Position numbers and translations under genes: made by a program. The notes under the pieces were generated by a model. That model did no database searches. It saw nothing but the letters and a program-made list of their open reading frames with translations, and was not told the DNA's origin. From Okamejei kenojei (Eukaryota), in NCBI GenBank assembly GCA_035221665.1, contig CM069160.1, forward strand, positions 30,628,001 to 30,692,000: a stretch of 64,000 nucleotides of DNA, written 5' to 3'. Shown here in pieces: positions 1,925 to 46,694 of the stretch. Within the stretch, counting starts at the first letter, position 1. Each line of letters starts with the position of its first letter.

Positions 1925-2525
1925 AGGATGTTGCCAGGATTCAAAGGTTGAGCTACAGGGAGAGGTTGAGCAGGCTGGGGACTCTATTCCTGGAGCGCAG
2001 GAGGATGAGGGGTGATCTTATAGCGGTGTGTATAAAAATCATGAGAAGAATAGATCGTGTTGACGCACACAGTCTCTTGTCCAGAGCAGGGGGGGAATCG
2101 AGGACAGAGGGACATGCAGTACCTTTAAGGTGAAGGGGGGAAAGATTAATAGGAATCTGAGGGGTGACTTTTTACACAAAGGGTGGTGGGGTGTGTGGAA
2201 CAAGCTGCCAGAGGAGGTAGTTGAGTGCTGGGGACTATTTCAAACTTTTAAGAAAGGATTATAAAGGTACATGGATAGAACAGGTAGACAAAATGCTGGA
2301 AGTAACTCAGCGGGGGGAGGCCGGCAGGCAGCATCTCTGGAGAGAAGGGATGGGTGACGTTTCGGGTCGAGACCCATCTTCAGAACTGAGGTTTGGATAG
2401 GACAGGTTTGGAGGGATATGGGGCAAAACACAGGCGGGTGAGACTAGTGTAGATGGGGGCATGTAGATCATCGTGGGCCAGTTGGGCGAATGAGCCTGTT
2501 TCCACCTGTACGACTCGATGACTAA
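1925..2525 (+). mobile_element. CR1-type LINE 3' fragment with an inserted Penelope-derived short element (~2283-2390, minus strand)
   Basis: SYRERLSRLG..LERRRMRGDL motif; interrupted by gtagacaaaatgctgg...gacgtttcgggtcgagacccatcttcag. Confidence 0.8.
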
Positions 2526-6977: not shown

Positions 6978-8751
6978 TCCTTCCTCTGAGAGGGTCTCCT
7001 CTGCATTGAACTGATATGATAGTCAGGCTGTTGGATGTTAGTTCTAGATGATCCTGCAACTGAACTGATAGTTGGTGAGCACACACACACACTACGCACA
7101 ATGCAGGAAGAAGTTTACAACTACAAATCTGCTTTCAAAGGTCAAAGTGTAATACATTTGTTCCCCCAATTATGATTCTTCCTCTTGCGAATGGCATGCA
7201 CAGCCTAAAGTTATTGGACAACTTAGAAACATAGAGAAATAGAAAATTAGGTGCAGGAGCAGGCATTCGGCCCTTCGAGCCTGTACCGCCATTCAATATG
7301 AATCATGGTGTAATCCAACTCAGTATCCTGTACCTGCTTCTCTCCATACCCCTCCTGATCCCTTCAGCCACAAGGGCCACATCCAAACTCCTCTTACCTA
7401 TGGCCAACGAATGGCCTCAACTACCTTCTGTGGCAGAGAATTCCACAGATTCACCACTTGTCTATTTTAGTTCTAAACTTGTTCTATTTGACCTTTTGAT
7501 TGAGCCTGCACGCCAGGTGTTTCCTCCCCCCACCCCCCACGCCACAAACTTCGTCAAAACAGGGGCGGACCACATGAGGGTTGCAATCGCCCCCCCTCCA
7601 TAAAGACCCCCATATGATTGTGAGCCCCTAAGTCATCAAAGAAGAAAGACAGTTTCCCTTAACCAGTATCTGTGCGTGCTACCCCCCCCCCCCCCCCCCA
7701 AAACACACATTACTCGAGGTGTTGCTCGTACACCGAGGTTGCCATGAGAGATTTATTAATTGGATAGGACGCGCTCCGTTCCTCCGTTCATAAGGTCAAC
7801 TTTCTCCAGCAACTCGCCTGTTTCCACTGCATAGGACAATACAGCGGGATGCAATAAACCTGTTACAACCATGCATTAGCTGCTAATTATTTGCGATTTA
7901 GCGTCCTTTGCACAGCATTTTCGCATTCTCTAATGGCCTCTTTCATTCAGAGTCCAGTGAAGGTCTAATTTAGCATTGTTCCCCAATCAAACCACTCATA
8001 TCTTAAATCATTTCTATCTCTATCACACCCCTCACTCCAAAGATCTGGTCTGTTTTCCCATATTACTCATTTTCATATCTTGAACTATTTGTCACTCATG
8101 TTTTCACATCTGCCCTTTCTATATCTCTGGCTTCCCTTCCCCGGGACTCTCTTTCTGAAGAAGGGTCTCGAACCCGAAACGTCGCCCGTTCCTTCTTATC
8201 CAGAGATGCCGCCTGTCCCGCTGAGTAACTCCAGCGTTTTTTGTATGTCTTTAGTTCGATTTTAATCAGCATCTGTAGTTCCTTCCTACACATTTGTTCT
8301 GGAGGGATAAGGAATGGGTAACGTTTCTGTTCGAGACCTTCAGACTAGCTCTCAGGGTTCCGGACCCGAATTGTCACCTATTCCTTCTCTCCAGTGATCG
8401 TGCCTGACCCACTGAGTTACTCCAGCATTTTATGTCTATCTGCCCCAAGCAGAGCTGAGAGCTGGCCATGGGAGAGAAAAGATGGAATGCTTGGTGCGAC
8501 GGGCCACAGTGCACTAGTCTGGTCCCCCTGAGTTACTCCAGCATTTTGTGTCTATCTTCAGCGGGGTAAACCAGCATCTGCAGTTCCTGCCTCCTTACTT
8601 CAAAGATCTAGTGTGTTCCCAAATAAATATTGTTTATATCTTGAAGATTTGATATCCATCGCTAATCACCACCCATTGTTCATCCCTTATAGGATCTGGT
8701 CTGTTCCCTAATTAATAATGCTCATCTCTTGATTCATTTCTATGTCTACCA

Positions 8752-9083
8752 ACACTGTGTGTGCAGCGGTAGAGCTATTGCCTTGCAGCATCAGAGGACC
8801 GGGTTCGATCCTGACTACGGGGCTTTGGAGCTGTCTGTACGGAGTTTATACGTTCTCCCCGTGACCTGTGTGGGTGTTCTCTGAAGATCTTGGTTTCCTA
8901 ACCACACTCCAACAGACGTCCAGGGCTTGTAGGTTAATTGGCTCGGCAGTATTTTAAATGGTCCCTGGAGTGTGTAGGGGTAGTGTTAATGTGCAGGGAT
9001 TCAGGCAAGTCCGTGCGGATTTGGTGGGCCGAATAGGGCCTGTTTTCTGCACTGCATCTCTAAATTGAAACTAAGCTAAACTA
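8752..9083 (+). mobile_element. HE1-like V-SINE
   Basis: gggttcgatcctgact, ggagtttatacgttctccccgtgacc, ggtgggccgaa..gggcctgttt, (aaact)n tail. Confidence 0.8.
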
Positions 9084-10499
9084 CCACCAAACCATTGTTC
9101 ACCCCTTGGTATAAAGATCTGGGATTGTCCAAATCGGTACAAATCCCTTGGTATAAAGATCGGTGAGCACAAATGTCACAATCCCTTGATAAGGAGCTGT
9201 TGTCACAATGTTACTGTTGGAGATTAAGCGGTTTCCAATATTCATCTTGTGCATCTTGGCTTAGATTTTCAAAGTTCCCCCCCCCCATCTCAAAGATGGT
9301 GAAAATAGTCGCCATTCGCAAAGATAAAATCTTTCATTTACTCTGCTTGTTGGAGATTTCCTGCAAATATTCTAGTTAAATGCCAGATCGATCTCTCTTT
9401 GTCTTTAAGGTTTGTGAATTTTATTAACAAGAAATGGTGAGATGTAACAACTGTTTACATGACCCAAAAAAATAATTTCATGTAACTGATCTTTTATTGG
9501 CCCTACTAATTTCAACAATTTTCTTAAAAAATTAAGGTTTTGCTGCTTGTTAGCATTAATATGCAGAGGGATTTGGGGGGTCCAAATCCATAACTCCTGA
9601 AAGTGACGACTTTGAGATTCAGTTGGGGAGGGTGCAGAGAAGATTTCCGAGGATGTTGCTGGCACTCGAATTCCTGAGCTACAGGCAGAGGTTGAGCATA
9701 CAGGACTTTGTTCTTGGAGTGCAGGAGGAAGAGGGGTGATCTTATAGAGGTGAGGGGGAATAGATGTTTATTTTTGGGACGCGCTAGAGGCAGGAAATAT
9801 GTTCCTGATGTTGGGGCAGTCCAAAACCAGGAGGTACAGTTTAAGAATAAGTGGTAAGCGATTTAGAACGGAGATGAGGAAACGGACTTTTTCTCGCAGA
9901 GTTGTTGGAGTGGAAGCAGTGGCGGGTGTTGTGGCGAGGGGGCAGGGTTGCCTGGCAGGCAAGTGTGCCCCTGATGAAGTGGGCTCCCTTTTTCTCCTGG
10001 CAACCAATATTTTTAGACCCAGTCCGCCACTGGTTGTGAGTCTATCAAATTCTCTGCCTCAGAGGGCAGTGGAGGCTGATTCTTTGGATGCTTTCAAGAG
10101 AGAGCTAGATAGGGCTCTTAAAGACAGCGGAGTCAGGGGATATGGGGAGAAGGCAGGAAAGGGGTACTGATTGTGGATGATCAGCCATGATCACATTGAA
10201 TGGCGGTGCTGGCTCGAAGGGCCGAATGGCCTACTCCTGCACCTATTGTCTATTGAATCTGAGAGGTCGCTTTTTCCACACAAAGCTGCCAGAGGGGGTA
10301 GTTGAGGCTGGGACTATCGCAAAGTTTAAGAAAGAGATAGGTGCATGGCTAGGACAGGTTTGGAGGGATATGGACCCAAGCTCCGCTCTGAGATGTTTGA
10401 TATGGACTAGGTGGTGGGACTAGTGTAGCTGGGACATGTTGGCCGGTGTGGGCAAGTTGGATTCCGCGGACCCTTAATCTTTCTAACCTTGAATCTCTT

Positions 10500-10900
10500 T
10501 TTTTAGTTTCACTCTCTCCGCTCCGCCCATGCATGCTCCATTTTGGCGGAAACGCAACTCTGTGTTAATCTCCTCTCCCGACGGTCGTCCTTCTCGTTCC
10601 GTGAGTGGTCTTAATACGACGAATTGAAGAAAGAAAGCGGTGTCTCAGAGCCCGGTTACTCCGCGCTGTTTGCTGGGCGCCGGTTACAGACTTGGTGGGG
10701 CAGGAGGGTCCCCTGGACGAGGGAGGAGCTGAAGCGGCCGCGCCGGGGGATTGACCAAAGAAATGACCAGGTGAGCGGCGCTCAGGGACAGATCCCTGTT
10801 TGCCAGCGGTTCAAGGGACCCCCTCCCCCCCCCCTGTTGCCCCTTCCAGGCCCACAGCCTCCGCGGGGTGCGCCTCGGGTCGTTGCCCCTTGAGAGAATC
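10500..10900 (+). promoter_or_regulatory. CpG-rich unique segment with a strong donor CAG|GTGAG at 10770/10771; candidate promoter and non-coding first exon of the butyrophilin-like gene
   Basis: High CpG density outside any recognised repeat; ccattttggcggaaa (YY1/E2F-like) near 10538-10552; the coding exon at 17364 has an acceptor, so an upstream exon must exist. Confidence 0.45.
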
Positions 10901-10959
10901 TGGAGAGACACAAGGAACTTGGTTTACAACTTGCCAACAAGTCCCAGCTACAGTAGTTA

Positions 10960-11475
10960 GAGGATTGTCGGAAAGGGTCTCGAAGACACGTCGCTAAATC
11001 TCCTTCGCTCCTTAGATGCTGCTGCACCGCTGGAGTTTCTTCCAGCTTGTTTGTGTACTCCAGCTCCAAGTTTTAACGAAGGAAATGAGATGCTGGAGAA
11101 TCGAGGGTACACAAAAAGCTGGAGAAACTCAGCGGGTGCAGCAGCATCTAAGGAGCGAAGGAGATAGGCGACGTTTCGGGTCGAGACCCTTCTTCAGACT
11201 GCTCGTTTCGGGTCGAGACCCTTCTTCAGACTGGTCTGAAGAAGGGTCTCGACCCGAAACGTCGCCTATCTCCTTCGCTCCTTAGATGCTGCTGCACCCG
11301 CTGAGTTTCTCCAGCTTTTTGTGTACCCCAGCTACAGTAGTCCCACCTGCCTGCGCTTGGTCCATATCCCTCCAAACCTGTCCTGTCCAAGGGTCTCGAC
11401 CCGAAACGTCGCCTATCGCCTTCGCCTCCTAGATGCTGCTGCACCCGCTGAGTTTCTCCAGCTTTTTGTGTAACC
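10960..11475. mobile_element. Cluster of Penelope-derived short (pLTR-like) elements, including a near-perfect inverted pair at 11106-11328
   Basis: gggtacacaaaaagctggagaaactcagcggg...cttcttcagac followed by its reverse complement; same sequence terminates the Penelope elements at 39360-39470 and 57578-57690. Confidence 0.8.
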
Positions 11476-11679
11476 CCCTGTCCATGTACCTGTCTGTTTC
11501 TTAAACGTTGAGATATAGTCCCAGCCTCAACTACCTCCCCAACTGTCACAATGAATGGCGGTGCAGGCTCGAAGGGCCAAATGGCCTCCTCCTGCGCCTA
11601 TTTTCTGTGTTTCACCCAAGTTCCATATCTATACACTGACTGAGGACTCCAGCACTCTGTCTTTTCCTGGCAGGTGACA

Positions 11680-12321
11680 GGAGGTGGGGGGTGAGGATGG
11701 GGGTGGGGATGGAGGTGGGGGGGGTGGGGATGGAGTGTGGGGGAGGGGCTGAGGATGGGGTGAGGATTGGGGGTGGGTATGGAGGATGGGATGTGGGGGT
11801 GAGGATGGGGGTGGGGCTGGGAGTGAGGGTGAGGATGAGGATGGGTGTGGGGCTGGGGTGGGGGGCCTTTATGAGGATAGGGGTGGGGGTGGGGCTGGGA
11901 GTGACGGTGGGGATGGGTGTGGGGGCTGGGGTAGGTGGGGATGAGGGATAGAGGGTGGGGCTGGAGTGACGGTGGGGCTGGGTGTGGGCTGGGGGTGAGG
12001 GTGGGGGTGAGAGGTGGGGGTGGGGGTGAGGATGCGTGTGGGGCTGGGGGTGAGGATGGGTGTGGGGCTGGCAATGAGGGTGGGGGTGAGGATGAGTGTG
12101 GGGCTGGGGGTGGGGGTGAGGATAGGGGTGGGGGTGAGGATGGGGGTGGGGATGGGTGAGGATAGGGGATGGGGGTGAGGAAGGTGTGGGGATGGGTATG
12201 GGGGTGAGGATAGGAGATGGGGGGTGAGGATGGGAGTTGAGGGTGAGGATAGGGGATGGGTGGGGGATGGGGGTGAGGATGGGTGTTGGGATGGGGGTGA
12301 GGGTGGGGGTGGGGGGGGGGA
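11680..12321 (+). repeat. G-rich low-complexity minisatellite (GGGGTGAGGAT/GGGGCT units)
   Basis: Directly visible G-tract repeats. Confidence 0.95.
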
Positions 12322-12679
12322 GTTAATTAATAAATGGTAAGGAGAAAGGCCAGAAATGAAAAAGACATAAAGTGTGAGTTAAGATGTTAAGGGAAGAAGG
12401 CATATTGTGAAGCCAGCGAGAGTCAAGTCAAGTTAAGTCAAGTCACCATTATTTGTCACATACGCATACAAGATGTACAGCGAAAAAATACCGCACGTCA
12501 ATACGTCATCACGGCGAAAAATTTTCCGTGAACTGATACGTCAGTCAATTATCAGAGCTCACAGTCCTGATGGCCTGTGGGAAGAAACTCGGTCTCATCC
12601 TCTCTGTTTTCACAGCGTGAGAGCGGAGCGCTTGCCTGACCGTAGCAGCAGCAACAGTCCGTTGCTGCCTGACCCACTA

Positions 12680-13544
12680 GTTACTCAGCGGGTCAGGCTG
12701 CATCTCTGGAGAAAAGGAATCGGTGAGGTTTCAGGTCGGAATCCTTCCTCACACTGCAACCATTTTTCCCCAGTGCGGACCCGAAACATCAGCTATTCCT
12801 TTTCTCCAAGTCTGTGGAATTCTCTGCCGTCTGTGGAACTCCCTGCCTCAGAGGGCGGTGGAGGCAGGTTCTCTGGATGCTTTCAAGAGAGAGCTGGATA
12901 GGGCTCTTAAAGATAGCGGTCAGGGGATATGAGGAGAAGGCAGGAACGGGGTACTGATTGGGGATGATCAGCCATTATCACAATGAATGGCGGTGCTGGC
13001 TCGAAGGGCCGAGTGACCTACTCCTGCACCTCTTGTCTATTGTCCAGAGATGCTGCCTGACACACTGAGATATCCCAGCACATGATGCCTGGCACTTGGT
13101 GTCTATCTATGAAAGGCAAAGATTAAGTGGATGTGGAAAGGATGTGTCCACTGGTGGGAGAGTCTTGGACCAGAGACCATAGCCTCAGATTTAAAGGGCA
13201 CTCCTTTAGAAAGGATGCGAGCAGGGCCGTCTTAAAGCATTGGCACGCTGGGCAGTTGCCCCGGGCCCCACGAATATAGGGGCCGCACGCTAATCTATGT
13301 ATTGTAGAATGTTATTGTAGAACAAGAAACCGGAGAAGAACATCGCAAGTGCATGATGCAGTATTTGAAGGCATGTAGTAGCCATTTAGCTTAACTCAGT
13401 ATGTTAGAACTATAAGTTCTGAAGAAGGGTTTCAGTCCAAAACGTTGCCTATTTCCTTCGCTCCATAGATGCTGCCTCACCGCTGAGTTTCTCCAGCATT
13501 TTTGTTTCCGATTTTATAGCATTTGCAGTTCCTTCTTAAGCATG
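12680..13544 (-). repeat. Inverted segmental duplication, copy 1 (reverse complement of 25379-26324)
   Basis: Colinear reverse-complement match across several unrelated TE junctions, e.g. catgatgcctggcacttggtgtctatctatgaaaggcaaag vs ctttgcctttcatagatagacaccaagtgccaggcatcatg. Confidence 0.95.
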
Positions 13545-14828: not shown

Positions 14829-15361
14829 GCATTTGACAAATAGACTTGACTTGTCTTGACCGCCACTGGACCATCCCCATCCCCTCCGCAGTGCTATCCC
14901 CCCCACCCACCCCAGTGCTATCTCCCCCCCCCCCCCCCATCGGTCAGGGGGCGGCCAGAGATGTCGGGAGTCAGACGGGAGCCGTATCCCCAGGCCCACA
15001 GGCAACGGGGAGAAGCAGCGCTAAATCCAGCTCAACTCTGCCTGTCTCACCGGGTTAACCTACAGCCCTGCTTGGACTGACGGGAACGGAAGGCCCAGCC
15101 TTACAGCCCATGGCTGCCGAGAGTTCTTATCGCTAGTGACCTTTGACAAATCCCATGATTCCTTGTGTTTTTCGGAATACCCGACTCGCTTATTGGAGGA
15201 ACAGCACCTCATATTTCATATGGGTAGCTTACAATGTTGAATTCCCCAAGGTTATGTAACTTCTCCTGTACCCCCCTCTCCCGTTTTCCCCCTCCCTCCT
15301 CCCTTGTCACTTAACCCATTCCACACTTGACCACATTGCATCCTGCATTGTCTCATTGTTT

Positions 15362-15466
15362 GTAAGGTAGACTAAAGTGCTGGAGAAACTCTGCGGGTGC
15401 AGCAGCATCTCTGGCGAGAAGGAAACAGGCAACGTGTCGGGCCAAAACCCTTCTTCAGACTGATGT

Positions 15467-15501
<35 letters not shown>

Positions 15502-16125
15502 GGGGGAGGAGGGTGGGAAGAAGAAAGGAAGAGGAGGAGCCAGAGGGCTGAGGGAGATCTGAGAAGGGGAGGAGACAGCAAGGGCTACCGGAACTTGGAG
15601 GTCAATGTTTATGCCCTCAGGGTGCAGACTGCCCAAGCGGAATATGAGGCGCTGCTCCTCCAATTTCCGGTGGTGCTCACTCTGGCCATGGAGGAGGCCC
15701 AGGACAGAAAGGTCAGATTCGGAATGGGAGGGGGAGTTGAAGTGCTGAGCCACCGGGAGGTATTCGGCGAAACGATCGCCGAGCCTACGCTTAGCCTCAC
15801 CGATTTTGATCAGCTGACACCTAGAGCAGCGGATGCAATAGATGAGATTGGAGGAAATGCAGGTGAACCTCTGTCGCACCTGGAACGGCTGCTTGGGTCT
15901 TTGAATGGAGTGGAGGGGGGAGGTAAAGCGACAAGTGTAGCATCTCTTGCGGTTGCAAGGGAAAGTGCCTGGGGAGGGGGTGGTGCGGGAGGAAAGGGAA
16001 TAATTGACGAGGGAGCGGTCTTTGCGGAAAGCAGAGGGGGGAGATGGGAAGATGTGGCGAGTGGTGGGGTCACGTTGGAGGTGGCGATAATGACGGAGGA
16101 CTATTTGTTGTATGTGACGGGTCTG
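15362..16125 (-). mobile_element. Penelope-like element 3' part (GIY-YIG endonuclease and pLTR)
   Basis: PCNRKRCYTC..FTCISSNLIYCIRCSRC..IGEAKRRLGDRFAE..VAQHFN..RKLEEQRLIFRLGSLHPEGIN. Confidence 0.9.
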
Positions 16126-16344
16126 TAACTTGTTTACACCTTGGCCACAGCTGACAATGGCCTGTGTGGGAAGGAACCGCAGATGCTGGTTTAAACCGAA
16201 GATAGACACAAAATGCTGGAGTAAATGCTGATGCTGCAGTAACTCAGAGGGTCAGGCAGCATCTCTGGAGAGAAGGAATGGGTGACGTTTCAGGTCGAGA
16301 CCCTCCTTCAGACACTTCAGAACCAGTCTGAAGAAGGGTCACCT

Positions 16345-17090
16345 GCCTCACCCGCTGAGTTGCTCCAGCACTCTGTGAAACGTCACCCATCCATGTTCTC
16401 CACAGATGCTGCCTGACCCACTGAGTTACTCCAGCACTCTGTGAAACGTCACCTATCCATGTTCTCCACAGATGCTGCCTGACCCACCGAGTTACTCCAG
16501 CACTCTGTGAAACGTCACCTATCCATGTTCTCCACAGATGCAAACTTACAAAATTCTTAAGAGGTTGGATAGGCTAGATGCAGGAAGATTATTCCTGATG
16601 TTGGGGGAGTCCAGAACAAGGGGTCACAGTCTAAGGATAAGGGGGAATTCCTTTAGGACCGAGATGAGGAAAACATTCTTTACACAGAGAGTGGTGAGTC
16701 TCTGGAATTCTCTGCCACAGAAGGTCATTGAGGCCAGTTCATTGGCTATATTCAAGAGGGAGTTGGATGTGGCTCTTGTGGCAAAAGGGATCAGGGGGTA
16801 TGGAGAGAAGGCAGGTACAGGATACTGGGTTGGATGATCCGCCATGATTGTATTGAATGGCGGTGCAGGCTAGAAGGGCCGAATGGCTTACCCCCTGCAC
16901 TTATTTTTATATGTTTCTATGTATCTATGCTGCCTGACCCACTGAGTTACTCCAGCACTCTGTGAAATGTCACCTATCCATGTTCTCCACAGATGCTGCC
17001 TGACCCACCGAGTTACTCCAGCACTCTGTGAAACGTCACCTATCCATGTTCTCCACAGAAGCTGCCTGTCCCGCTGAGTCACTCCAGCAT
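16345..17090 (+). repeat. 66-bp tandem repeat derived from the Penelope pLTR, split by a CR1 insertion (~16540-16926)
   Basis: Unit agatgctgcctgacccactgagttactccagcactctgtgaaacgtcacctatccatgttctccac recurs at 16404, 16470 and 16536 and resumes at ~16927. Confidence 0.85.
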
Positions 17091-17365: not shown

Positions 17366-17423
17366 ATGGATGGAAGTCACATCAGTATTTTATTCCTACT
17401 CTGTGTTCATCCAGCGTTATCAG
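17366..17423 (+). CDS. Butyrophilin-like gene, signal-peptide exon
   Basis: Acceptor AG at 17362-17363, ATG at 17366, MDGSHISILFLLCVHPALS-G, phase-1 donor GTAAG at 17424 compatible with the IgV exon. Confidence 0.8.
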
Positions 17424-17574
17424 GTAAGATCTTTCTCGTGCCTTAATCTTTAATTGTATTTTTAAATGAAGCATATTAAATATGTGTCTCTGGAGCAGAT
17501 TAAAACACTTGGTGCCAAAAGACTTTTATGTGGCTGTGCAGTAAAATCATATTGGATAAATGAAAGGGTTCAGA

Positions 17575-20680: not shown

Positions 20681-20764
20681 ATGAGTGTGTTCACAAACCA
20701 AGCTGTGATGCATCCAGATAAAATACCTCTGTCGTGATGTGTGAATTTTGTTCGATTTCACCAG

Positions 20765-21112
20765 GGAAGTTCCGGATTTTTGGTCCAAAGATCGACCCGG
20801 TGGTCTCGGTGGGTAAAGATGCTGTGCTGGAGTGCCAGACGGAACCAAAAACCGCCCTGAATGACTTGGAGGTCCGATGGTTCAAAGACGACTTTTCGTC
20901 GCCAGTGCATCTGTACACCAATGGACATGACCTGCTGACCGCTCAGGACAGTGCTTTTCATGGCAGGACAGAGCTCTTTAACAAAGAGTTTTCCAGCGGA
21001 AATGCCTCACTTAAATTGAAGAACACAAATGCCTTCGATGATGGGGTGTACACCTGTTTCATCGATTTCAAACAGGACTACGAGGAAGTGAAGATCCGGC
21101 TGTATGTGGGAG
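20765..21112 (+). CDS. Butyrophilin-like gene, IgV exon (348 nt)
   Basis: AG/GT boundaries in phase 1-1; VGKDAVLEC..LEVRWFK..VHLY..Q..F.GRTELF..GNASLKL..DDGVYTCF is the B7/BTN IgV signature. Confidence 0.95.
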
Positions 21113-21164
21113 GTCAGACCATCTGATTACGATATTTCAAACTGCTTTTACAATCACCATCATA

Positions 21165-22515: not shown

Positions 22516-22561
22516 TGATCATGCATGCAATCCTGTTTTGATGTTTACACTTGCTTTGCAG

Positions 22562-22846
22562 GAATTGGGCGGCAGCCTTGGGTTGAGCTGGAAGGAGTCG
22601 GTCAGAAGGGCATTCGAGTCGGGTGCAGGTCTGATGGCTGGTACCCTGAGCCTCACGTTCTCTGGATGAATGGGGACAGAGCAAACTTAACAGGACAATC
22701 TGTGACAATGGAGAAAGATAAGACCACTGGCCTCTTTACTGTATTGAACCAAGTTGAAGTAACAAGTGATGCTGTGAACAGATTTTCTTGCCTAATGCAG
22801 AACAATGTATTGAAGAAAGAGGAGGAGGCTCACTTTGAAATATCAG
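22562..22846 (+). CDS. Butyrophilin-like gene, IgC exon (285 nt)
   Basis: AG/GT boundaries in phase 1-1; G.QP..GIRVGCRSDGWYPEPHVLW..GLFTV..FSCLMQN. Confidence 0.95.
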
Positions 22847-22879
22847 GTGCGTGCCCAACTTTGCAACCAATAGTTATTC

Positions 22880-23335: not shown

Positions 23336-23700
23336 TTTAACCCTTGCTGTCTCCTCCCCTTCCCACCTCTCCCTCAGCCCTCGGGCAATGGCATTCCCTC
23401 TATCTCTATCTCCCTCCCCCACCCCAGTCGCACCAGCTTCTCATTTTCACACCACAAACAGCTTACAATGGCTTGTTCCCTTTATCATCGATACTTTTTT
23501 GCATATCTTTCATTCATTGTTCCTTATCTCTCCACATCACCGTCTATATCTCTCGTTTCCCTGATCCCTGACCAGTCTGAAGAAGGGTCTTGACCCGAAA
23601 CGTCGCCTATCTCCTTCGCTCCTTAGATGCTGCTGCACCTGCTGAGTTTCTCCAGCTTTTTGTGTACCCTCGATTCTCCAGCATCTGCAGTTCCTTCTTT
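23335..23700 (+). mobile_element. Penelope pLTR solo fragment
   Basis: Matches the 3' end of the Penelope copies at 39120-39470 and 57578-57945; contains ctgaagaagggtcttgacccgaaacgtc. Confidence 0.85.
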
Positions 23701-24975: not shown

Positions 24976-25553
24976 TGTAGTGACATATTGTTATTTCCTT
25001 TCACTTTAAGTCACTTTAATTGAAGACATGGGATCAGAAGATAATCAATACACACTCCCGAGCTCTCCACGAGACATGCAATGTCGTAGAAAGATAAATC
25101 TTCCAAACACGGTCTTTTGATTGATAGTTCCTTTATTATAATAGTAAAAACAGTAAGATCCAAGCTTCTTTTTGTCTAAGTGCATTTTAATCTTTCTCGT
25201 GGTCATACTCGTGCATGGTTGAAAGCTATGACCTCTCCCCCATGCTTCTTCAAACTAAACTAACTTCTAGCGAGTCTGCGCGAGAATCCCAGCCGCAAAC
25301 ATGCCTCGGACCACGTATAAACCCCACCCACATCATTTCAGGCAGATAAAATTTAAAGGTAACTGGTTATAGTTCTAACATGTTTAAGAAGGAACTGCAG
25401 ATGCTGTAAAATCACAGGGAAACAAAAATGCTGGAGAAACTCAGCGGTGAGGCAGCATCTATCGAGCGAAGGAAATGGGCAACGTTTTGGACTGAAACCC
25501 TTCTTCGGAACTTATAGTTCTAACATACTGAGTTAAGCTAAATGGCTACTACA
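24976..25553 (-). mobile_element. Solo LTR (TGTAGT...ACTACA) with 5-bp TSD CTTGC, carrying a Penelope-derived insertion
   Basis: cttgc at 24971-24975 and 25554-25558; inverted termini; tttatt (minus-strand AATAAA) near 25133. Confidence 0.8.
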
Positions 25554-26324
25554 CTTGCATCCAGGGTTGCCTTAACAAAGTAGTGCGCTGGGGCCCCCAC
25601 ACTTCCAGTTTCTTCATGCCTTCAAATACTGCATCATGCACTTGCGATGTTCTTCTCCGGTTTCTTGGTCTACAATAACATTCTACAATACATAGATTAG
25701 CGTGCGGCCCCTATATTCGTGGGGCCCGGGGCAACTGCCCAGCGTGCCAATGCTTTAAGACGGCCCTGCTCGCATCCTTTCTAAAGGAGTGCCCTTTAAA
25801 TCAGAGGCTATGGTCTCTGGTCCAAGACTCTCCCACCAGTGGAAACATCCTTTCCACATCCACTTAATCTTTGCCTTTCATAGATAGACACCAAGTGCCA
25901 GGCATCATGTGCTGGGATATCTCAGTCTGTCAGGCAGCATCTCTGGACAATAGACAATAGGTGCAGGAGTAGGACATTCGGCCCTTCAAGCCAGCACCGC
26001 CATTCAATGTGATAATGGCTGGTCATCCCCAATCAGTACCCCGTTCCTGCCTTCTCCTCATATCCCCTGACTCTGCTATCTTTAAGAGCCCTATCCAGCT
26101 CTCTCTTGAAAGCATCCAGAGAACCTGCCTCCACCGCCCTCTGAGGCAGAGAGTTCCACAGATGGCAGAGAATTCCACAGACTTGGAGAAAAGGAATAGC
26201 TGACGTTTCGGGTCCGAACCTTTCTTCACACTGGGGAAAAAAGGTTGCAGTGTGAGGAAGGGTTCCGACCTGAAACCTCACCGATTCCTTTTCTCCAGAG
26301 ATGCTGCCTGACCCGCTGAGTAAC
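25379..26324 (+). repeat. Inverted segmental duplication, copy 2 (longer, ancestral-like)
   Basis: Reverse complement of 12680-13544, plus ~62-bp and ~12-bp segments missing from copy 1. Confidence 0.95.
25562..25768. mobile_element. hAT-type MITE
   Basis: TIRs cagggttgccttaa / ttaagacggccctg; 8-bp TSD cttgcatc (25554-25561) / ctcgcatc (25769-25776). Confidence 0.8.
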
Positions 26325-26722
26325 TCTAGCATTTTATGTCTATCTTCAGTAGAAGCCAGCATCTGTTCAAGGTCAAGAGTTCAAGAGAGTTTTAATGTCA
26401 TGTGTCCCTGATAGGACAATGATTCTTGCTTTGCTTTGCACACCAGAACATAGTAGGCATGAATACAGAACAGATCAGTGTGTCCATATACCATTGTATA
26501 AATATATACACACATGAATAAATAAACTGATAAAGTGCAAATAAACAGGTAATGGGCTATTAATGTTCAGAGTTTGTCCGAGCCAAGTGGGCATTTCATT
26601 CCTACATATTCTCTATACTCAGTACTCTGACTGATGACCAAAGCCGTTTTGACAACCTTATCTACCTGTGAAGCCACTTTCAGGGAACAATGTGCTTGAT
26701 TCTTTTTAATTGTATTTTGCAG

Positions 26723-26842
26723 GTGTTTTTTTCCCCGAGACCAACATATGGATGGTCCTTTTCTCGTTAGTTTTTATTCTCGTCATCACTGTGATCATTT
26801 GTGAAATATTTCACCACAGGAAAAAACATCAAAAGGTTAAAG
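26723..26842 (+). CDS. Butyrophilin-like gene, transmembrane exon (120 nt)
   Basis: AG/GT boundaries in phase 1-1; GVFFPETNIWMVLFSLVFILVITVIICEIFHHRKKHQKVK, with the BTN-type FFP..W motif, a hydrophobic helix and a basic stop-transfer stretch. Confidence 0.9.
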
Positions 26843-27339
26843 GTAGGTTAAAAAAAAAGTAACAGTTGAGCGAAATTTCACGAAAGAACTGAAAAATCCT
26901 GTGAGCAAAATAATCTATTGGTTGAAGATAGACATAAAGTGCTGGAGTAACTCAGCGGGACAGGCAGCATCTCAGGGGCCACAGTCTTAGAATAAAGGGG
27001 AGGCCATTTAGGACTGAGGTGAGAAAAAACCTTTTCACCCAGAGAGTTGTGAATTTGTGGAATTCCCTGCCACAGAGGGCAGTGGAGGCTAAATCACTGG
27101 ATGGATTTAAGAGAGAGTTAGATAGAGCTCTAGGGGCTAGTGGAATCAAGGGATATGGGGAGAAGGCAGGCACGAGTTATTGATTGGGGACGATCAGCCA
27201 TGATCACAATGAATGGTGATGCTGGCGCAAAGGGCCGAATGGCCTCCTCCTGCACCAATTTTATATGTTTCTATGCTTCTGTGAGAATGGTGATGTTTTG
27301 GTTCGAGACCCTTCTTCGGACTTCAGTTTCAAAACTGGG

Positions 27340-28282: not shown

Positions 28283-28524
28283 TTTTTTCATGTGTTATTG
28301 GGAATGTTCTACACATTAGAATTTGTGCCTGATCAACATTTCTATTAGGAGTAGGAAGGAAAAAGGGTCTCGACCCGAGACATCACCTATTCGTTTTCTC
28401 CAGAGATGCTGCCTGACCCACTGAGTTACTCTAGCTTTTTGTGTCTAACATTTCTATTGACCTCCATATAAATTGAGATTCGGCACACCAAAAATTAGTT
28501 GATAAATGGGATGCACCGACACCA

Positions 28525-30160
28525 TGTATAAAATCATGAGAGGAATAGATCGGGTAGATGCACAGAATCTCTTGCCCAGAGTAGGGGAATGATGGAACGG
28601 GGTACTGATTGGGTATGATCAGCCATGATCACATTGAATGGTGGTGCTGGCTTGAAGGGCCGAATGGCCTACTCCTGCACCTATTGTCTATTGACCAGCG
28701 GACGTAGGTTTAAGGTGAAGGGGAAAAGATTTAATAGGAATCTGAGGGGTAATATTTTCACACAAAGGGTTTAAGAAGGAACTGCAGATGCTGGAAAATC
28801 GAAGGTAGACAAAAATGCTGGAGAAACTCAGTGGGTGCAGCAGCATCTAAGAAGGAAATAGGCAACATTTCAGGCCGAAACCCTTCTTCAGACTTTTGTC
28901 TACCTTCACACAAAGGGTGGTGGGTGTATGGAACAAGCTACCAGAGGAGGTAGTTGAGGCTGGGACTATCCCAACGATAAATAAACAGTTAGACAGGTAC
29001 ATGGATAGGACAGGTTTGGAAGGACATTCTTGCTATTGAGGGAGTGCAGCATAGATTTACTGTCATATGTTGATAGAATGGAGAGGCTGGGCTTGTATAC
29101 ACTGGAATTTAGAAGGATGAGAGGGATTCTTATTGAAACAAATAAGATTATCAAGAGATTAGACACGCTGGAGGCAGGAAACATGTTGGGGGAGTCCAGA
29201 ACCAGGGTCCACAGTTTAAGAATAAGGCGTACGTCATTTAGAATGGAGAACGGGAACAACCTTTTCACCCAGAGATTTGTGAATCGGTGGAATTCTCTGC
29301 CTCAGAAGGCAGTGGAGGCTCTCGCTTTCAAGAAAGAGTTAGATCTCTTAAAGATAACGGAGTCAAGGGATATGGGGAGAAGGCAGAAACGGGGTACTGA
29401 TTGTGCCATGATCTGTATTGCATACAGTTTTGGTCCCCAAATCTGAGAAAATATATTCTTGCCATAGAGGTGGTACAGAGAAGGTTCACCAGACTGATTC
29501 CTAGGATGTCAGGACTTTCATATGAGGAAAGACTGGATGACTTGGTTTGTACTCACTAGAATTTAGAAGACCGAGGGGGGATCTTATAGAAACTTACAAA
29601 ATTCTTAAGGGGTTGGACAGGCTAGATGCAGGAAGATTGTTCCCAATGTTGGGGAGGTCCAGAACAAGGGGTCACAGTCTAAGGATAAGGGGGAATTCCT
29701 TTAGGACCGAGATGAGGAAAACATTTTTCACACAGAGAGTGGTGAGTCTCTGGAATTCTCTGCCACAGAAGGTAGTTGAGGCCAGTTAATTGGCTATATC
29801 TAAGAGGGAGTTAGATGTGGCCCTTGTGGCTAAAGGGATCAGGGGGTATGGAGAGAAGGCAGGAACAGGATACTGAGTTGGATGATCAGCCATGATCATA
29901 TTGAATGGCGGTGCAGGCTCGAAGGGCCGAATGGCCTACTCCTGCACCTTTATTCTATTGTCTGTTTCTATGTTTCTATGTAAATGGCGGTGCAGGCTCG
30001 AAGGGCCGAATGGCCTACTCCTGCACCTTTATTCTATTGTCTGTTATTATGGGGAGAAGGCAGGAGAATGAGGATGGGAGGGTAAAATAGGCCAGCCATG
30101 ACTGAATGGCAGAGTAGACGAATGGCCTAATTGTGCTCCTATAACATATGATTAGTAATT
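28525..30160 (+). mobile_element. Stack of CR1 3' fragments with a Penelope-derived insertion (duplicated ttcacacaaagggt flanks)
   Basis: Multiple CR1 RT/3' ends; ttcacacaaagggt at ~28757 and ~28905. Confidence 0.85.
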
Positions 30161-30290: not shown

Positions 30291-30317
30291 GACTGAAGTT
30301 GTTTTGCACTTTGGAAG
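30291..30317 (+). CDS. Butyrophilin-like gene, 27-nt juxtamembrane mini-exon 1
   Basis: ttgatttcag|...|gtgagt, phase 1-1, GLKLFCTLE; located in a short non-repeat island. Confidence 0.75.
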
Positions 30318-31032
30318 GTGAGTAGCTTCGGAACTGAGTCCATTTTGTACAATCAGTGACATACAATTTTTAAATGCATAGACGGACTTCAGTTTTTGCA
30401 CAGATATGTTTGCCTAATATTTGTTATTTATTTAGTGTATTAAGAATAAGGGGTAAGGCATTTAGAATGAAGATGAGGAAACACTTTTTCACCCGGAGAG
30501 TTGTGAGTCTGTGGAATTCTCTGCCTCCGCGGGTAGTGAAGGCCGGTTCTCTGGATATTTTCAAGAGAGCTACATAGGGCTCTTAAAGATAGCAGTCGGG
30601 GGATATGGGGAGAAGGCAAGAACGGGGTACTGATTGTGGATGATCAGCCATGATCACATCGAATGGCAGTGCTGGCTCGAAGGGCAGAATCTAGCTCTCT
30701 ATCTAGCTCTCTCTTGAAAGTATCCAGAGAACCAATCTCCACCGCCCTCTGAGGCAGAGAATTCCACAGACTCACAACTCTCCGAGTGAAAAAGTGTTTC
30801 CTCGTCTCAATTCTAAATGGCTTACCCCTTATTCTTAAACTGCGGACCCTGGTTCTGGACTCCCCCAACATCGGGAACATGTTTCCTGCCGCTAGCGTTC
30901 CCAAACCCTTAATAATCTTATATGTTTCAATAAGATTCCCTCTCATCCTTCAAAATTCCAGAGTCTACAAGCACATGACAATAAAACACTCTTGACTGTT
31001 GACTAATTTTAAACTTTTATTTTTCTTTACAG

Positions 31033-31059
31033 GTTATCAAGATCATAAAATAAACGAAG
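31033..31059 (+). CDS. Butyrophilin-like gene, 27-nt mini-exon 2
   Basis: ttttctttacag|...|gtaaat, phase 1-1, GYQDHKINE; a 27-nt pre-B30.2 exon is typical of BTN genes. Confidence 0.75.
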
Positions 31060-32256: not shown

Positions 32257-32741
32257 TTAAGGGTATATTACAGTAAATTTTGGAAATATCCTACTACTTA
32301 GTTAGTTAGATAGAGCTCTAGGGGCTAGTGGAGTCAAGGGATATGGGAGAAGGCAGGCACGGGTTATTGATAGGGGACAATCAGCCATGATCACAATGAA
32401 TGGCGGTGCTGGGTCGAATGGCCTCCTCCTGCACCTATTTTCTCTGTTTCTATGTTACTTTGAAATTAGAAAACCATAGGTAGAGAGACAAAAACGTATT
32501 ACATTTCCAGCTCCACTGCCATTAAAACCAATAAGTGCTTACTAACCACTTTTTTTGACAATGCTTTTTTTAAGTATAGAAAAAAAAAAATATCTGAATA
32601 AATTAAGTACCCTTAATAGATTATTCACTCTTCATTCACCCCTCGTGTTTCATTCACCAGAAAATAATTTCATTCGCCCTTGGGTGAACCATTCACCAGT
32701 TTAAGAAGCACTGCTCTAACCTACTGCCTTCTTCACCCTAG

Positions 32742-33340
32742 TTTCCGTGACCCTGGACGAGAAAACTGCGCATCCAAAGCTGGAGTTGAAAAATCTTAAT
32801 CGTATGCGGCTGACTGAGTGCGAAAAGACCCGACAGGAGAGCGGGGACTGCTTTACAGATCTGGAATCGGTGCTGGGGTCGAACGCATTCAGTGCGGGGC
32901 GACATTACTGGGTGGTGGAGGTGGCCATGAATCAGGACTGGAGCCTGGGAGTGGTCTCCGAGTCGGCCGAGAGGAGAGAGAAGGTGGAGTTGCTGCCGGA
33001 GAATAAATTCTGGACCATCCAACGTGTTGGGGCTGACTGCTACACCAACGACGCCACTCGCTCTGTCCTTGATGCCAAACCTAGCCCCGAGAAGGTGGGG
33101 GTTTACCTCAGTTACGAGTCCGGGACGGTCTCGTTCTACAACGTGGCCACCAAGTCCCATCTCCACTCCTTCACCGGGAATAAATTCGAGGAGAAACTTT
33201 ATCCTTTCCTCCAGAGCCGAGACGTCGACAAGTGGGTGAAGGTTTCCGCTTGTTCCGTTCTGGAGCTGCACAAAGAGCCTCGATCCCGGGCGTCGGGCAA
33301 GCGGAGGTTTCGGAAGCTGTGTGTTGGAGCACCCTACTGA
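32742..33340 (+). CDS. Butyrophilin-like gene, B30.2 (PRY-SPRY) terminal exon
   Basis: AG at 32740-32741, phase 1; VSVTLDEKTAHPKL..VLG..F.AGRHYWVVEV..WSLGV..FW..KVGVYLSYESGTVSFYN..HLHSF..F.EKLYPF; TGA ends at 33340. Spliced CDS is 1464 nt, i.e. 487 aa plus stop. Confidence 0.95.
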
Positions 33341-35480: not shown

Positions 35481-36539
35481 GAGTCACCGCTGTCGACAGT
35501 CCGTGTTCAAGCCCTCTCGTCTGGAAGCTGGAAACTCTGGCGTCGGGACAGATCGGAACCCTCCATAGCATGGAGCTCCCGAGTCGGCCTCTTCTTACCG
35601 TAGTCAGCGGCTTCACGGTGTTAAAGTCCACAGGTTCCCTCCGCGTCGGGGCAATAAAGCTCCTGCATCGGGGGGGGGTCTCAGCTTCCCCGCGCCGGGC
35701 GATCTGACCCCGGGTCGGGGCAATCAAACTCCCCCACCTCCTCTCCTGTGCCCACCAAATACCCAAGACTGACACAAAAACCTGGAGTAACTCAGCGGGA
35801 CAGGCAGCATCTCTGGAGAGGAGGAATGGTTGATGTTTCGGGTCGAGACCCTTCTCAGGCTGCAAATCACGGGAAAGGAAAACGAGAGATATAGACGATG
35901 TAGAGAGAAAGAACAAATGAATGAAAGATATGCAAAAAAGTAATGATGATAAAGGAAACAGGCCATTCTTAGCAGTGCTAGGTGAGAAGGAGAAGCTGGT
36001 GTGACTTGGGTGGGGGAGGGATGGAAAGAATGGAATGCAGGATTACTTGACGTTAGAGAATTTAATATTAATACCCCTGGGGTGTAAGCTGCCCGAGCGA
36101 AATATGAGATACTGTTCCTCCAATTTGCGTTTAGCCTCACTCTTGACAATGGAGGAGGCCCAGGACAGAAAGGTCAGTGTGGGTAAGAATGAACTGCAGA
36201 TGCTGGTTTAAACTGAAGATAGACACAAAAAGCTGGAGTAACTCAGCAGGACAGGCAGCATCTCTGGAGAGAAGGAAAGGGTGACATTTTGGGTCGAGAC
36301 CCTTCTTTCGAGGTCAATGGGAGATATGGGAAGCGGAATTAAAGTGTTTAGTCACCGGGTCATCAAGATAGATCCAGGCATTGTCCGGCGTCTCCCCTCT
36401 TCCGGCTTTCTTCAACCCCGACCCCCCCCCCCAATCAGTCCCATCCATGTTCTCCAGAGATGCTGTCCTGAGTTACAGCACTCTGGAAACCTCTCCGCAG
36501 ATGCTGCTTGATCCGCTGAGTTACTCCAGCACTCATGTG

Positions 36540-37360
36540 AAACATAGAAATTAGGTGCAGGAGCAGGCCATTCGGCCCTTCGAGCCTGCACCTCCATTCA
36601 ATATGATCATGGCTGATCATCCAACTCAGTATCCTGTACCTGCCTTCTCTCCATACCATCTGATCCCTTCAGCCACAAGGGCCACATCCAACTCCCTCTT
36701 AAATATGGGCAACAAACTGCCCTCAACTACCTTCTGTGGCAGAGAATTCCACAGATTCACAACACAGATGTGTGAAAAACGATTTTCCTCATCTCGGTCC
36801 TAAAAGACTTCCCCCTTATCCTTAAACCTGTGACCCCTTGTCCTGGACTTCCCCAACATCGGAACAATCTTCCTCCTGCATCTAGCCTGTCCCAACCCCT
36901 TAAGAATTTTGTAAGTCTCTATAATGAGATCACCACCTCAATCTTCTAAATTCCAGCGAGTACAAGCCGAGTCTATCCAGTCTTTCTTCATATGGAAGTC
37001 GTGCCAATCCCAGGAATCAGTCCAGTGTTGTACCTTCCTCTGTACTCCCTCTATGGCAAGAATGTCTTCCTCAGATTAGAGACCAAAACTGTACGCAATA
37101 CTCCAAGGTGTGGCCTCACCAAAACCGCTGTACAACTGCAGTAGAACCTCCCTGCTCTTGTACTCAAATCCTTTTGCTAAGAATGCCAACATACCATTTG
37201 CTTTTCTTCACAGCCTCTGCACCTGCCATGCCCTACTTTCAATGACTGGTGGTACCATCGACATCCTAGGTCTCGCTGCATCTCCCCTTTTCCTAATCGG
37301 TCACCATTCAAATAATAGTCTACCTTCCTGTTTTTGCCACCAACAGTGGATAACCTCACA
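36540..37360 (-). mobile_element. CR1 LINE 3' fragment (indel-rich)
   Basis: Reverse complement of the 14040-14828 family sequence. Confidence 0.9.
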
Positions 37361-37444
37361 AATCGGAATGGTCACCTATCCATGTTCTCCACAGATTGCT
37401 TTCCTGATCCCTGGTTACTCCCAGCACTCCTGTGAAATCATCCA

Positions 37445-39470
37445 CCAATCCACGGCCTAGAGTGACAACAAATACCGCAAGCTGGAGGAACAGCACCTCA
37501 ATCCTTGACGCCATCCTATCCCCCTTTGTTAAATCCCCTCCCCACCCTATGTTCAAGACACCTCCGACACTCTCCGTCTGCTCCATGCCATTCCATTCTC
37601 CAGGCCCCATACCTCTCATCTTTATACCATGACGTCCAGTCACTTCCACCCTACACCTCCATTTCCCCACCAGGACGGTCTCAAAGCCCTCCCTGTTCTT
37701 CCTCGACCAGAGGAGCAACCCATACCCGTCCACGACACCCTCCTTCCCGCCTAGCAGAAGGTTTGGTCCCACCCTCAATAACTTCTCTTTTGATTCCTCC
37801 TCATTATCCTCCAAACACAAGGCTAGCTATGGGCACACGCATGGGGCCCCAGCCTACGCTGCCTCTTTGTTGGGTACGTCGAACATCCTGTTCTCTCGAC
37901 TACCAGGGCCCCCATCCCCGTACCTCTACCTCCGTTACATCGTCGACTGCTTTGGTGTCCCGTCCTGCACCCACGACACAACTGACCTGACTTCATTCAT
38001 TTCACCACCAACTCCATCCGCACTCAATACACTTGGACCCATTTCGCGACACCCTCCCAAACCATTCCTTTGACCTCAGCCATACTCTATAGCAGGTGAT
38101 ACGCTCCTGACCGACACCCACTATAAACCACTGACTCACCCCAGCTACCTGGACTACTACTTCCTCACACCCACCCTGCTTCCTGTAAGGACTCCATCCC
38201 CTATTCCAATTCCTCTCCTCCGTCTACCACTAACGCCGCATCTGCTCCCATGATGAGGTGTTCCACACCAGGTCATCACAAATGTCCTCATTCTTCAGAA
38301 ACGGGGATTCCCCCTCCCCCACTATTGATGAGGCTCCGCACCAGGGTCCTCCTCCATACCGCTGCAACAAAAACACTGCCTCGCTCCCCCATTCCCCCAC
38401 TACAGACCCGCAAACAGGCAGAGTCCCCCTGTCCCTCACCTTTCACCCACCAGCCGGCAAATACACATATAGTCACTACGCGCTCAGTTTCAGCTACCTC
38501 CAACGTGACCCCTCCACCCCGCCACATCTTCCCATCTCCCTCACACACTCTCACATACCAGCGCACCACCGCCCCACACGACCCCCCTGTCTGCCTTCAG
38601 CAAAGACCGCTCCCTCCGCAACTCCTTGGTCCATTCTTCCCTCCCCTCCACTCTACTACCACCTACCACTACCCCTTCCCCGGCGCACTTACCCCTTGCA
38701 ACCGCAAGAAATGCAACACATGTCCCTTCACCTCCCCCCTCAACTTATCAGGGACCCAAGCAGTCCCTTTCCAGGTCCGACAGAGGTCACCTGCACCTCC
38801 TCCAACCTCACATACTGCATCCGCCTGCTTTACCAATGCCAGAAGATCTATATCGGTGAACCAAGCGGAGGCTTGGCGATCGCTTCGCCGAACACCTCTG
38901 CTCGGTCCCGCAAATAACCAACCCGACCTCCACCCTCCTCCGGTGGCTCAGCACTTCACTCCCCCCCCCCCCCATTCCACAATTTCCGACCTCTCGGTCC
39001 TGGGCCTCCTCCTCCGGCCAGAGTGAAGCAACAACCGCAAGCTGGAGAAACAGCCACCTCATATTTCCGCTTGGGAGTCTGTCAACCTTTGGGCTGTATA
39101 TTGAATTTTCTCAATTCTGTTAACCCTTGCTGTCTCAATCCCCCTCCCACCTCTCCCTCAGCCCTTCGGGCCCTGCATGTCCCTCTATCTCTTCTCTCCT
39201 CCCCCCACCACAGTCGCACCAGCTCTCATTTTCACACCACAAACAGCTTAAATGGCTTGATCCCTTTTATCACACGAACTGACTTTTTTGCATATCTTTC
39301 ACTCATTTGTTTCCTTATCTCTCCACATCACCGTCTATATCTCTAGTTCCCCAGATACCTGACCAGATCAGAAGAAGGGTCTCCGACCCGAAAAAAACCG
39401 TCGCCTATCTCCTTACGCGTCCTTAGATTGCTGCTGCACACCACTGAAGTTTCCTCGGCTTTTGTGTACC
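37445..39470 (+). mobile_element. Penelope-like retroelement (RT, GIY-YIG, pLTR), frameshifted
   Basis: G.AMGTRMGP, YLRYIVDCFG (YIDD-like), H.KPT..YLDY, PCNRKKCNTC, TCTSSNLTYCI, IYIGE, VAQHF; terminal pLTR. Confidence 0.9.
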
Positions 39471-46140: not shown

Positions 46141-46229
46141 TCCAACCAGTGAATTGCAGGAATCTGCAGCTGATTTTTTTTTCACTCTTGAGTCACCAGA
46201 TCCTTTGGTCACAAGTACTGAAGATAAAC

Positions 46230-46652: not shown

Positions 46653-46694
46653 GTAACGCCAGATTTTGTTAATTATGATTTTCACGCTCATTGA

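Follow-up and report, generated by a model that had tools for sequence, protein, structure and literature searches.

A minimal type I hammerhead motif in the terminal repeat of a probable Neptune-type Penelope-like element of the skate Okamejei kenojei

A 64-kb stretch of the genome of the skate Okamejei kenojei (assembly GCA_035221665.1, contig CM069160.1, forward-strand positions 30,628,001 to 30,692,000; hereafter the window) contains a 28-nt motif resembling the minimal hammerhead ribozymes of Penelope-like elements (PLEs). The sequence-only reading of this DNA proposed a very high-copy, non-autonomous, retrozyme-like family, of which some copies in sense orientation might affect the pre-mRNA of a butyrophilin (BTN) gene. 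This raises the question of what the motif belongs to and what it might cut. We are fairly confident that it is the minimal type I hammerhead fold carried by the terminal repeat (pLTR) of a Neptune-type PLE, and that the scattered copies of 95–365 bp probably arose by 5'-truncated insertion of this element rather than as a ribozyme family in its own right.

The focal core and its copies

The 28-nt motif is present exactly as it was first written down. It lies in one arm of a larger inverted structure, the parts of which are:

11236–11263, plus strand: focal minimal type I hammerhead core (sequence, pattern scan and copy alignment)
11236–11242: CUGAAGA of the focal core, followed by an extra A
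11244–11247 with 11252–11255: helix II of the focal core, followed by GAAA
11259–11262: ACGU of the focal core
11076–11329, both strands: whole focal insertion, a head-to-head inverted repeat of two 5'-truncated pLTR ends
11170–11197, minus strand: intact hammerhead core in the left arm of the insertion (pattern scan)
11202–11233, minus strand: 5' part of the core duplicated in tandem over 32 nt, without the GUC triplet

In the focal core, cleavage is predicted after the C at 11263, with helix I formed by 11233–11235 and 11264–11266. The left arm of the insertion (minus strand) carries a tail of about 30 nt, the right arm (plus strand, 11232–11329) ends at the short end, and the focal copy is thus the tail-less arm of a perfect inverted repeat of about 95 bp. 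Folding of 11130–11340 predicted a hairpin of −164.1 kcal/mol (z −20.7). In a transcript through the focal copy, this hairpin of about 95 bp is predicted to take up the core. Rfam gave no hammerhead match in the whole window at the gathering score, nor in 7800–11700 at E ≤ 10, as expected for a motif lacking helix III. The miRNA matches which Rfam returned in 7800–11700 merely reflect the inverted repeat and were discarded.

The pattern CTGANGA-N8..25-GAAAC matched six times in the window as compared with 0.73 ± 0.90 times in shuffled sequence, and none of 100 shuffles reached six. All five copies that had been singled out as good were found, at 2356–2383 (minus), 8155–8183 (plus, with one additional loop base), 11170–11197 (minus), 11236–11263 (plus) and 23577–23604 (plus). 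The 11 copies listed as degenerate were all recovered by BLAST and profile search at, or a few bases from, the positions given for them. A sixth near-copy, at 11202–11229 (minus), was not on the list and lacks GUC. Beyond these 16 listed copies, the profile search brought the total to 55 related pieces in 64 kb, in agreement with the very high abundance that had been claimed for the core.

The Penelope-like element and the ends of the short copies

The motif stands at the end of both long PLE copies, as had been noted, and also at the end of ORF-bearing pieces at 15431, 35832 and 54724. The closest proteins to the 15616–16251 frame are RT/GIY-YIG proteins of sharks and rays (56–60% identity). 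Tblastn with these homologues mapped five decayed copies of the ORF, at 15595–16113 (minus), 36046–36175 (minus), 37542–39117 (plus), 54154–54609 (plus) and 57837–59451 (minus), and all five have the motif downstream on the same strand. The homologues contain a GIY-YIG domain (E about 3e-4, just under the cut-off of Pfam) and a weak RVT_1 match; the decayed PLE frames of the window itself had no Pfam match.

The 15307–16251 frame encodes a C-X4-C-X2-C linker finger. A CX2-5CxxC linker is a mark of Neptune and Nematis elements and is missing from Penelope and Poseidon (Craig et al., 2021, PMC8557442). We therefore regard the element as probably a Neptune-type PLE, a name given by the linker and by the RT and GIY-YIG homologues. 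Compared with the Neptune-clade PLEs of that study, the window holds no full-length or intact copy, and the linker finger is also found in Nematis. Three subfamilies (A, A2 and B) were distinguished, each with ORF-bearing copies. Penelope has been noted in the whale shark (PMC8455134). A literature search for Penelope or hammerheads in skate, Leucoraja and cartilaginous fish found no paper on this PLE family, and published supplements may list elasmobranch examples. The main copies in the window are:

23336–23700, plus strand: solo 365-bp pLTR of subfamily A, from ORF stop codon to tail, with an A run
57580–59648, minus strand: 5'-truncated, frameshifted Neptune-type PLE (RT, CX4CX2C linker, GIY-YIG) with pLTR
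37540–39472, plus strand: second long decayed PLE copy, core at about 39368–39403 with indels
15357–16113, minus strand: 3' part of the PLE ORF (linker zinc finger, GIY-YIG region) with subfamily A2 pLTR
35758–36335, minus strand: subfamily B pieces in partial tandem (a short tailed copy, an ORF end fragment and a pLTR that has the short end)
2282–2393, minus strand: short subfamily B insertion, intact core at 2356–2383, 14-bp duplication 2272/2394 with one mismatch
8039–8591, both strands: composite insertion, intact core at 8155–8183 (plus), inverted pair at about 8349/8354
25382–25511, minus strand: short A2 insertion, exact 15-bp target duplication, two core changes
28772–28904, minus strand: short A2 insertion, exact 14-bp target duplication, inverted stub of about 10 bp at the 5' end
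28347–28446, plus strand: short decayed B insertion, exact 12-bp target duplication
26184–26366, both strands: head-to-head inverted pair of short copies, C3 changed to G in both
16160–16342: head-to-head inverted pair, B copy with tail (minus) and 5' half core (plus)
16343–17089, plus strand: 66-bp tandem array of the pLTR part 3' of helix II, split by another repeat

The solo pLTR, which sits in the BTN intron that separates the IgC exon from the transmembrane exon, has an intact core at 23577–23604 and a 14-bp target duplication (23321/23713, one mismatch). The core of the long minus-strand copy, at 57655–57681, has one base missing, and that of the 15357–16113 copy, at 15431–15458, has a GUU triplet and one core change. 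The composite insertion is flanked by a 13-bp duplication (8034/8597, one mismatch), and the inverted pair at 26184–26366 is duplicated in part at 12679–12808.

Several observations concern the surroundings of these copies. The element at 57580–59648 interrupts an AT-rich LINE ORF (endonuclease domain 60905–61390), with a duplication of about 12 bp containing a one-base indel. A further short divergent PLE ORF end, at 15184–15320 (plus), lies tail to tail with the 15357–16113 copy. A local inverted duplication, 12679–13538 / 25385–26325 (95.5% over 714 bp), doubles several repeat copies. One-base indels are frequent even in young repeats at 36000–39600 and 57500–60400; they suggest uncorrected long-read assembly errors, and some apparent decay may be sequencing error.

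The ends of the copies were measured on 46 pieces (the 55 rows minus five extra tandem units, one stub, one duplicate and one upstream-only row, with two rows merged). Counted from the first core base, 26 of the 46 3' ends fall at +76 to +99 and 13 at +119 to +134; none falls at +100 to +118, and seven are shorter. These two 3' ends, about 35 nt apart, match the two reverse transcription start sites and the 30–40 bp tail reported for PLEs (PMC11167929, PMC8557442), a two-site signature which has been explained by internal initiation of reverse transcription (PMC11167929). Each falls shortly after one of two CCAGC-containing repeats. The segment AGATGCTG (within 23625–23686) can pair with either of these downstream repeats, a pairing that shows no covariation. 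Eleven copies conserve a hairpin further downstream, closed by AGAUGCUG/CAGCAUCU, but it shows no two-sided changes and so lacks support from covariation.

Target duplications of 12–15 bp were found at six insertions (31 intervals tried), and random pairs reached at least 12 bp in five of 300 cases. The two duplications reported earlier, 15 bp at 25367/25512 and 14 bp at 28757/28905, are exact. Two 16-bp candidates, 11050/11318 and 47671/47801, were discounted as element-internal sequence and microsatellite, respectively. Head-to-head pairs occur at about 8350, 11233, 16318 and 26240; such pairs are known for PLEs (PMC8557442, PMC3846280). With 5' truncation, an inverted 5' copy, an optional tail and a target duplication, the short copies look like ordinary truncated PLE insertions.

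The 5' ends also show a sharp boundary. Nineteen of the 46 pieces start at −7 to +6 of the first core base (two of them duplicates from a local duplication of 0.7–0.9 kb), two at −14 to −12, none at −106 to −15, and eight further upstream. The remaining 17 start at +14 or beyond, 11 of these at +32 to +47, where alignment ends are uncertain. For eight insertion events, a target duplication or an inversion junction gives independent confirmation of where the boundary lies. Three families of metagenome loci show a softer excess of starts 11–24 nt upstream, and two of these have two groups of 3' ends. Nearly all short copies reaching the cut site extend across it, and at most two to three pieces start near it (+28), which indicates that uncut RNA is the usual template.

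The sharp boundary at the ribozyme edge suggests a fixed RNA 5' end at this place and copying from uncut RNA. As the cause of the boundary, the 5' end of the RNA is the foremost candidate, which we put forward tentatively. The CCAGTCT context at the boundary fits the initiator consensus. Alternatively, reverse transcriptase may stop at a folded or protein-bound ribozyme, or snap back at the near-palindromic CAGTCTG. The Penelope element of D. virilis has an internal promoter within its pLTR (PMC2377424), and our literature search found no report of a fixed 5' boundary at a PLE ribozyme. More speculatively still, the RNA may start at the 5' edge of the ribozyme, and the copies of 95–130 bp would then be 'strong-stop' cDNAs, begun at the two internal RT start sites closest to the 5' end of the RNA and run off at the transcription start.

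These ends can be compared with those of the Poseidon element PAc of the green anole (Frangieh et al., 2024, PMC11167929). PAc likewise has two 3' ends past the hammerhead and copies that span an uncut ribozyme. Unlike the skate element, PAc belongs to another clade and its ORF starts in helix II, whereas no shared ORF start was found in the skate copies. A fixed 5' boundary at the ribozyme is described for the skate copies only, as far as the parts of the PAc study used here extend.

Fold and conservation of the core

The focal motif shows the layout of the PLE minimal type I hammerhead that had been ascribed to it: an extra base between A9 and G10.1, a G10.1–C11.1 pair, and, where helix III would be, an ACGU palindrome that 18 of the 27 aligned copies retain. 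It resembles the minimal hammerheads of Cervera and de la Pena (2014, PMC4209133) in being type I without a true helix III and with a palindromic C15.2–G16.2, in the extra base between 9 and 10.1, in G10.1–C11.1 and in its pLTR location; many single copies from truncated elements and opposite-strand pairs are also common to both. It differs from them in a helix I of 2 bp as against 4–5 bp and a helix II of 4 bp as against 7–8 bp (Schistosoma type). The host differs too, since that study, in the text used here, names no cartilaginous fish. The abundance in skate is probably far above the 4,000–9,000 copies of coelacanth and Xenopus given there, although the comparison is rough. In run X20, which carries another organism label, the repeat bins reached a summed depth of 1.7–1.8 million as against about 11 on single exons, an order-of-magnitude hint and no copy number.

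The caution first attached to helix I, that it is short, was justified. Helix I has 2 bp in 20 of the 27 aligned copies and 0–1 bp in six; one, the focal copy, has 3 bp, the third pair being supplied by the inversion junction. The helix cannot be extended because both flanks are pyrimidine-rich. ViennaRNA gave the hammerhead helices a probability of at most 0.05, even without the inverted arm. The forced active dimer has −6.7 kcal/mol for skate and −14.7 kcal/mol for the metagenome locus L005, and neither is the lowest-energy dimer. In view of the short helix I and the poor predicted fold, a constant core might also reflect a promoter or protein-binding role.

Support for the fold comes from related sequences. 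A metagenome scan with the core pattern yielded 121 loci, of which 19 also match a PLE protein, in most cases 5' of the core and in the same orientation; one includes a near-complete PLE frame 48% identical to a shark protein. At L002:1061–3608, a near-complete Neptune-like element carries this core 3'-terminally and an inverted copy 5'-terminally, and is a candidate for an element with a longer helix I. Core-pattern scans of viral contigs and prokaryote genomes gave no match. In the related loci, helix I averages 2.8 bp as compared with 1.2 bp for shuffled flanks (64 distinct flank pairs; maximum in 1000 shuffles 1.6); the 2 bp of the skate copies fall short of this mean. We aligned five window copies with 26 loci hand-picked to span the families. 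In this 31-row alignment, 83.5% of cells pair, as against 64.2% in shuffles (reached by none of 500) and 18–53% for slid controls. Helix I of the related loci, 2–4 bp long, covaries, with two-sided changes at all four pairs. Helix II is paired in 92.7% of cells, three of its pairs being fixed by the search pattern. As the loci were chosen by a pattern taken from the motif itself, only helix I and the inner helix II pairs count as independent evidence. On the covariation of helix I, the shuffles and the slid controls, we judge from these alignments that the hammerhead fold is real as a family.

A core no better conserved than the rest of the pLTR had been named as a ground for refutation. The core passes this check between subfamilies and fails it within copies. 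The three subfamily consensuses differ at none of 13 core positions as against 21 of 61 downstream (Fisher p = 0.008). They rest on five, three and eight copies, and the p value is optimistic because copies are few, assembly indel errors are many and some downstream 'fixed differences' are alignment offsets. CUGANGA, GAAA and the NUH triplet are present in all three consensuses, and the single changes in helix I and helix II are both U–A to U–G and keep the pairing. Within copies, private changes are as frequent in the core (23 of 208, 11.1%) as downstream (108 of 968, 11.2%; 16 copies). An intact catalytic core remains in six of 27 aligned copies (2383, 8155, 11197, 11236, 23577 and 28891). 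The 11229 row, an alignment artefact from a copy without GUC, was counted neither as intact nor as ACGU-bearing. From these figures the inserted copies likely decay neutrally, with no indication of selection after insertion. We infer selection on the core in the active master elements.

In such master elements, the selected core would, rather probably, cut after GUC or GUU, only as a dimer joined through the ACGU palindrome and probably with the protein of the element; dimer and protein are invoked since helix I is just 2 bp. Published minimal hammerheads cleave weakly and as dimers only (PMC4209133), and the anole hammerhead cleaves only with its protein (PMC11167929). On the model of the anole element, reverse transcription would be primed at nicked DNA on uncut RNA, starting at either of two internal positions in the RNA that lie about 90 and about 125 nt 3' of the first core base. 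It would often end at the 5' edge of the ribozyme, producing short copies, often as head-to-head pairs with a tail on one arm. After insertion, the copies would decay neutrally and be unlikely to cut host RNA.

The reading that competes best with a selected ribozyme is that the ribozyme is vestigial, its helix I eroded in skates and its sequence retained as a core promoter, a protein-binding site or a site of RT pausing. It would account for the 2-bp helix I, which the pyrimidine-rich flanks prevent from being extended, for an A at N7, and for downstream blocks that are nearly as conserved over aligned copies as the core (89.9% versus 91.7%). Moreover, mutating the hammerhead of the anole element left its insertion in vitro unaffected, and reads ending at the cut site were absent (PMC11167929). 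We nevertheless consider it unlikely, though not remotely so: all catalytic positions are constant across subfamilies, changes in helices I and II keep the pairing, and the D. virilis Penelope, which also has a 2-bp helix I, cleaves at a low level in a helix III-extended form (PMC4209133).

Retrozymes, splicing and the butyrophilin gene

PLE hammerheads are treated as established in reviews (PMC6765202, PMC6155905). In animal non-LTR retrozymes, every unit of a tandem repeat carries its own hammerhead (Cervera and de la Pena, 2020, PMC7229834; Li et al., 2026, 10.64898/2026.07.22.740005), and the skate copies resemble them in being non-coding, hammerhead-bearing, derived from a PLE pLTR and of similar size. 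Retrozymes have been reported from one chondrichthyan, with a mean of 363 bp (Li et al., 2026). The skate copies could accordingly be a non-autonomous retrozyme- or SINE-like family, in which a short RNA of about 125 or 365 nt is transcribed alone, may be cut and made circular, and moves with the help of the PLE protein. The sharp 5' boundary of the short copies, the solo 365-bp unit with its A run and target duplication, the chondrichthyan consensus average of 363 bp and the very high abundance in read data would all suit such a family.

The classification as a retrozyme-like family is not borne out in the window, where no tandem array has a hammerhead in every unit. Unlike retrozymes, which are tandem and give circular RNA (PMC7229834), the skate copies stand alone or in inverted pairs, and the catalytic 5' half is missing from the arrays. 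The 66-bp units derive from the pLTR segment that runs from GAAAC, with which they begin, to the short 3' end, and have no CUGANGA; similar units are present at 39472–39603 and single ones near 36491 and 37370. Colinearity breaks 8 nt upstream of the cut site and not at it, and an origin of the 66-bp arrays from ribozyme circles was rejected; they may arise by repeated re-initiation of reverse transcription. With these units and with the 32-bp duplicate lacking GUC, no two consecutive units in the window hold a complete hammerhead. Nor is there a canonical type I hammerhead with a 6-bp helix I and loop contacts: the core is minimal, with helix I of 2 bp and no Rfam hammerhead match. ORF-bearing members exist in all three subfamilies, and no end-to-start joint was found among the best 15 of 6073 joints (contigs only). 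A retrozyme- or SINE-like family is thus improbable, and the short copies appear as ordinary truncated PLE insertions. In a tree, short and long copies mix inside the subfamilies with no short-copy group; only one of 16 branches is well supported, and because of this poor resolution a non-autonomous short lineage may still exist. Arrays of complete units may occur elsewhere in the genome, since the 365-bp solo pLTR is close to the chondrichthyan retrozyme mean.

Splicing could in principle complete the ribozyme: a pyrimidine tract and YAG before the core would serve as a 3' splice site, and a spliced-in 5' strand would lengthen helix I. The upstream tract is indeed rich in pyrimidines, most copies have AG ahead of the U preceding the core (17–20 of 21 per position), and D. 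virilis Penelope offers a precedent (PMC4209133). This is nonetheless highly improbable. The solo pLTR, read by eye, has no GTRAG donor, no purine-rich exon end able to pair with the 3' strand was seen, and the AG retained in the short copies points to unspliced RNA as their source. No such joint was present among the best 15 of 6073 joints in RNA contigs, and a protein search for exonised copies was negative, which is weak evidence.

There remains the suggestion that sense copies cut the transcript of the BTN gene, which has the following structure:

17366–17424, 20764–21114, 22561–22848, 26724–26843, 30293–30319, about 31032–31058 and 32741–33340, plus strand: coding exons of the butyrophilin-like host gene

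Its IgV domain is closest to a little skate protein (90%), followed by another skate (86%). A splice acceptor precedes the ATG by 2 nt, and a donor-like site at 10770 ends a CpG-rich stretch, 10500–10780, which is likely the BTN promoter and an untranslated first exon; the focal copy would therefore lie in predicted intron 1. Contigs of runs X1 and X19 (1783 and 1780 nt; Logan) join IgV to IgC and continue 890–986 nt beyond IgC, so that a spliced BTN mRNA exists. Downstream of BTN, a TRIM gene RING and B-box exon (46227–46691) lies after some 6 kb of CT-rich simple repeats that include assembly gaps.

That intronic sense copies cut the BTN pre-mRNA and tune its expression can scarcely be credited, although the transcription unit does contain two sense cores that are intact, at 23577 (mapped intron) and 11236 (predicted first intron). 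With eight sense and nine antisense copies, the unit shows no strand bias. The focal copy is paired in its predicted hairpin of about 95 bp; the 12 kb or so downstream of it hold no other intact sense core, and the copy at 8155, which lies 3 kb upstream, falls outside the predicted transcript. The cores decay neutrally, and the spliced contigs run past IgC. The case for an effect on BTN pre-mRNA is accordingly weak, and we see no sign of a host function for the hammerhead copies.

The link between hammerheads and PLEs was established before; what the skate copies add is a new host lineage and an unusually reduced helix I. The ribozyme was dispensable for insertion in vitro in the one PLE tested, and the sharp 5' boundary and the two 3' ends of such abundant copies offer a cheap handle on its role in the PLE life cycle. 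If the RNA does start at the ribozyme edge, this would also explain why helix I is cut to 2 bp, and the strong-stop copies would constitute a genome-wide fossil map of PLE transcription and of priming on uncut RNA. The skate element would then present a protein-dependent hammerhead under selection, its core possibly in 10^5 or more copies per genome.
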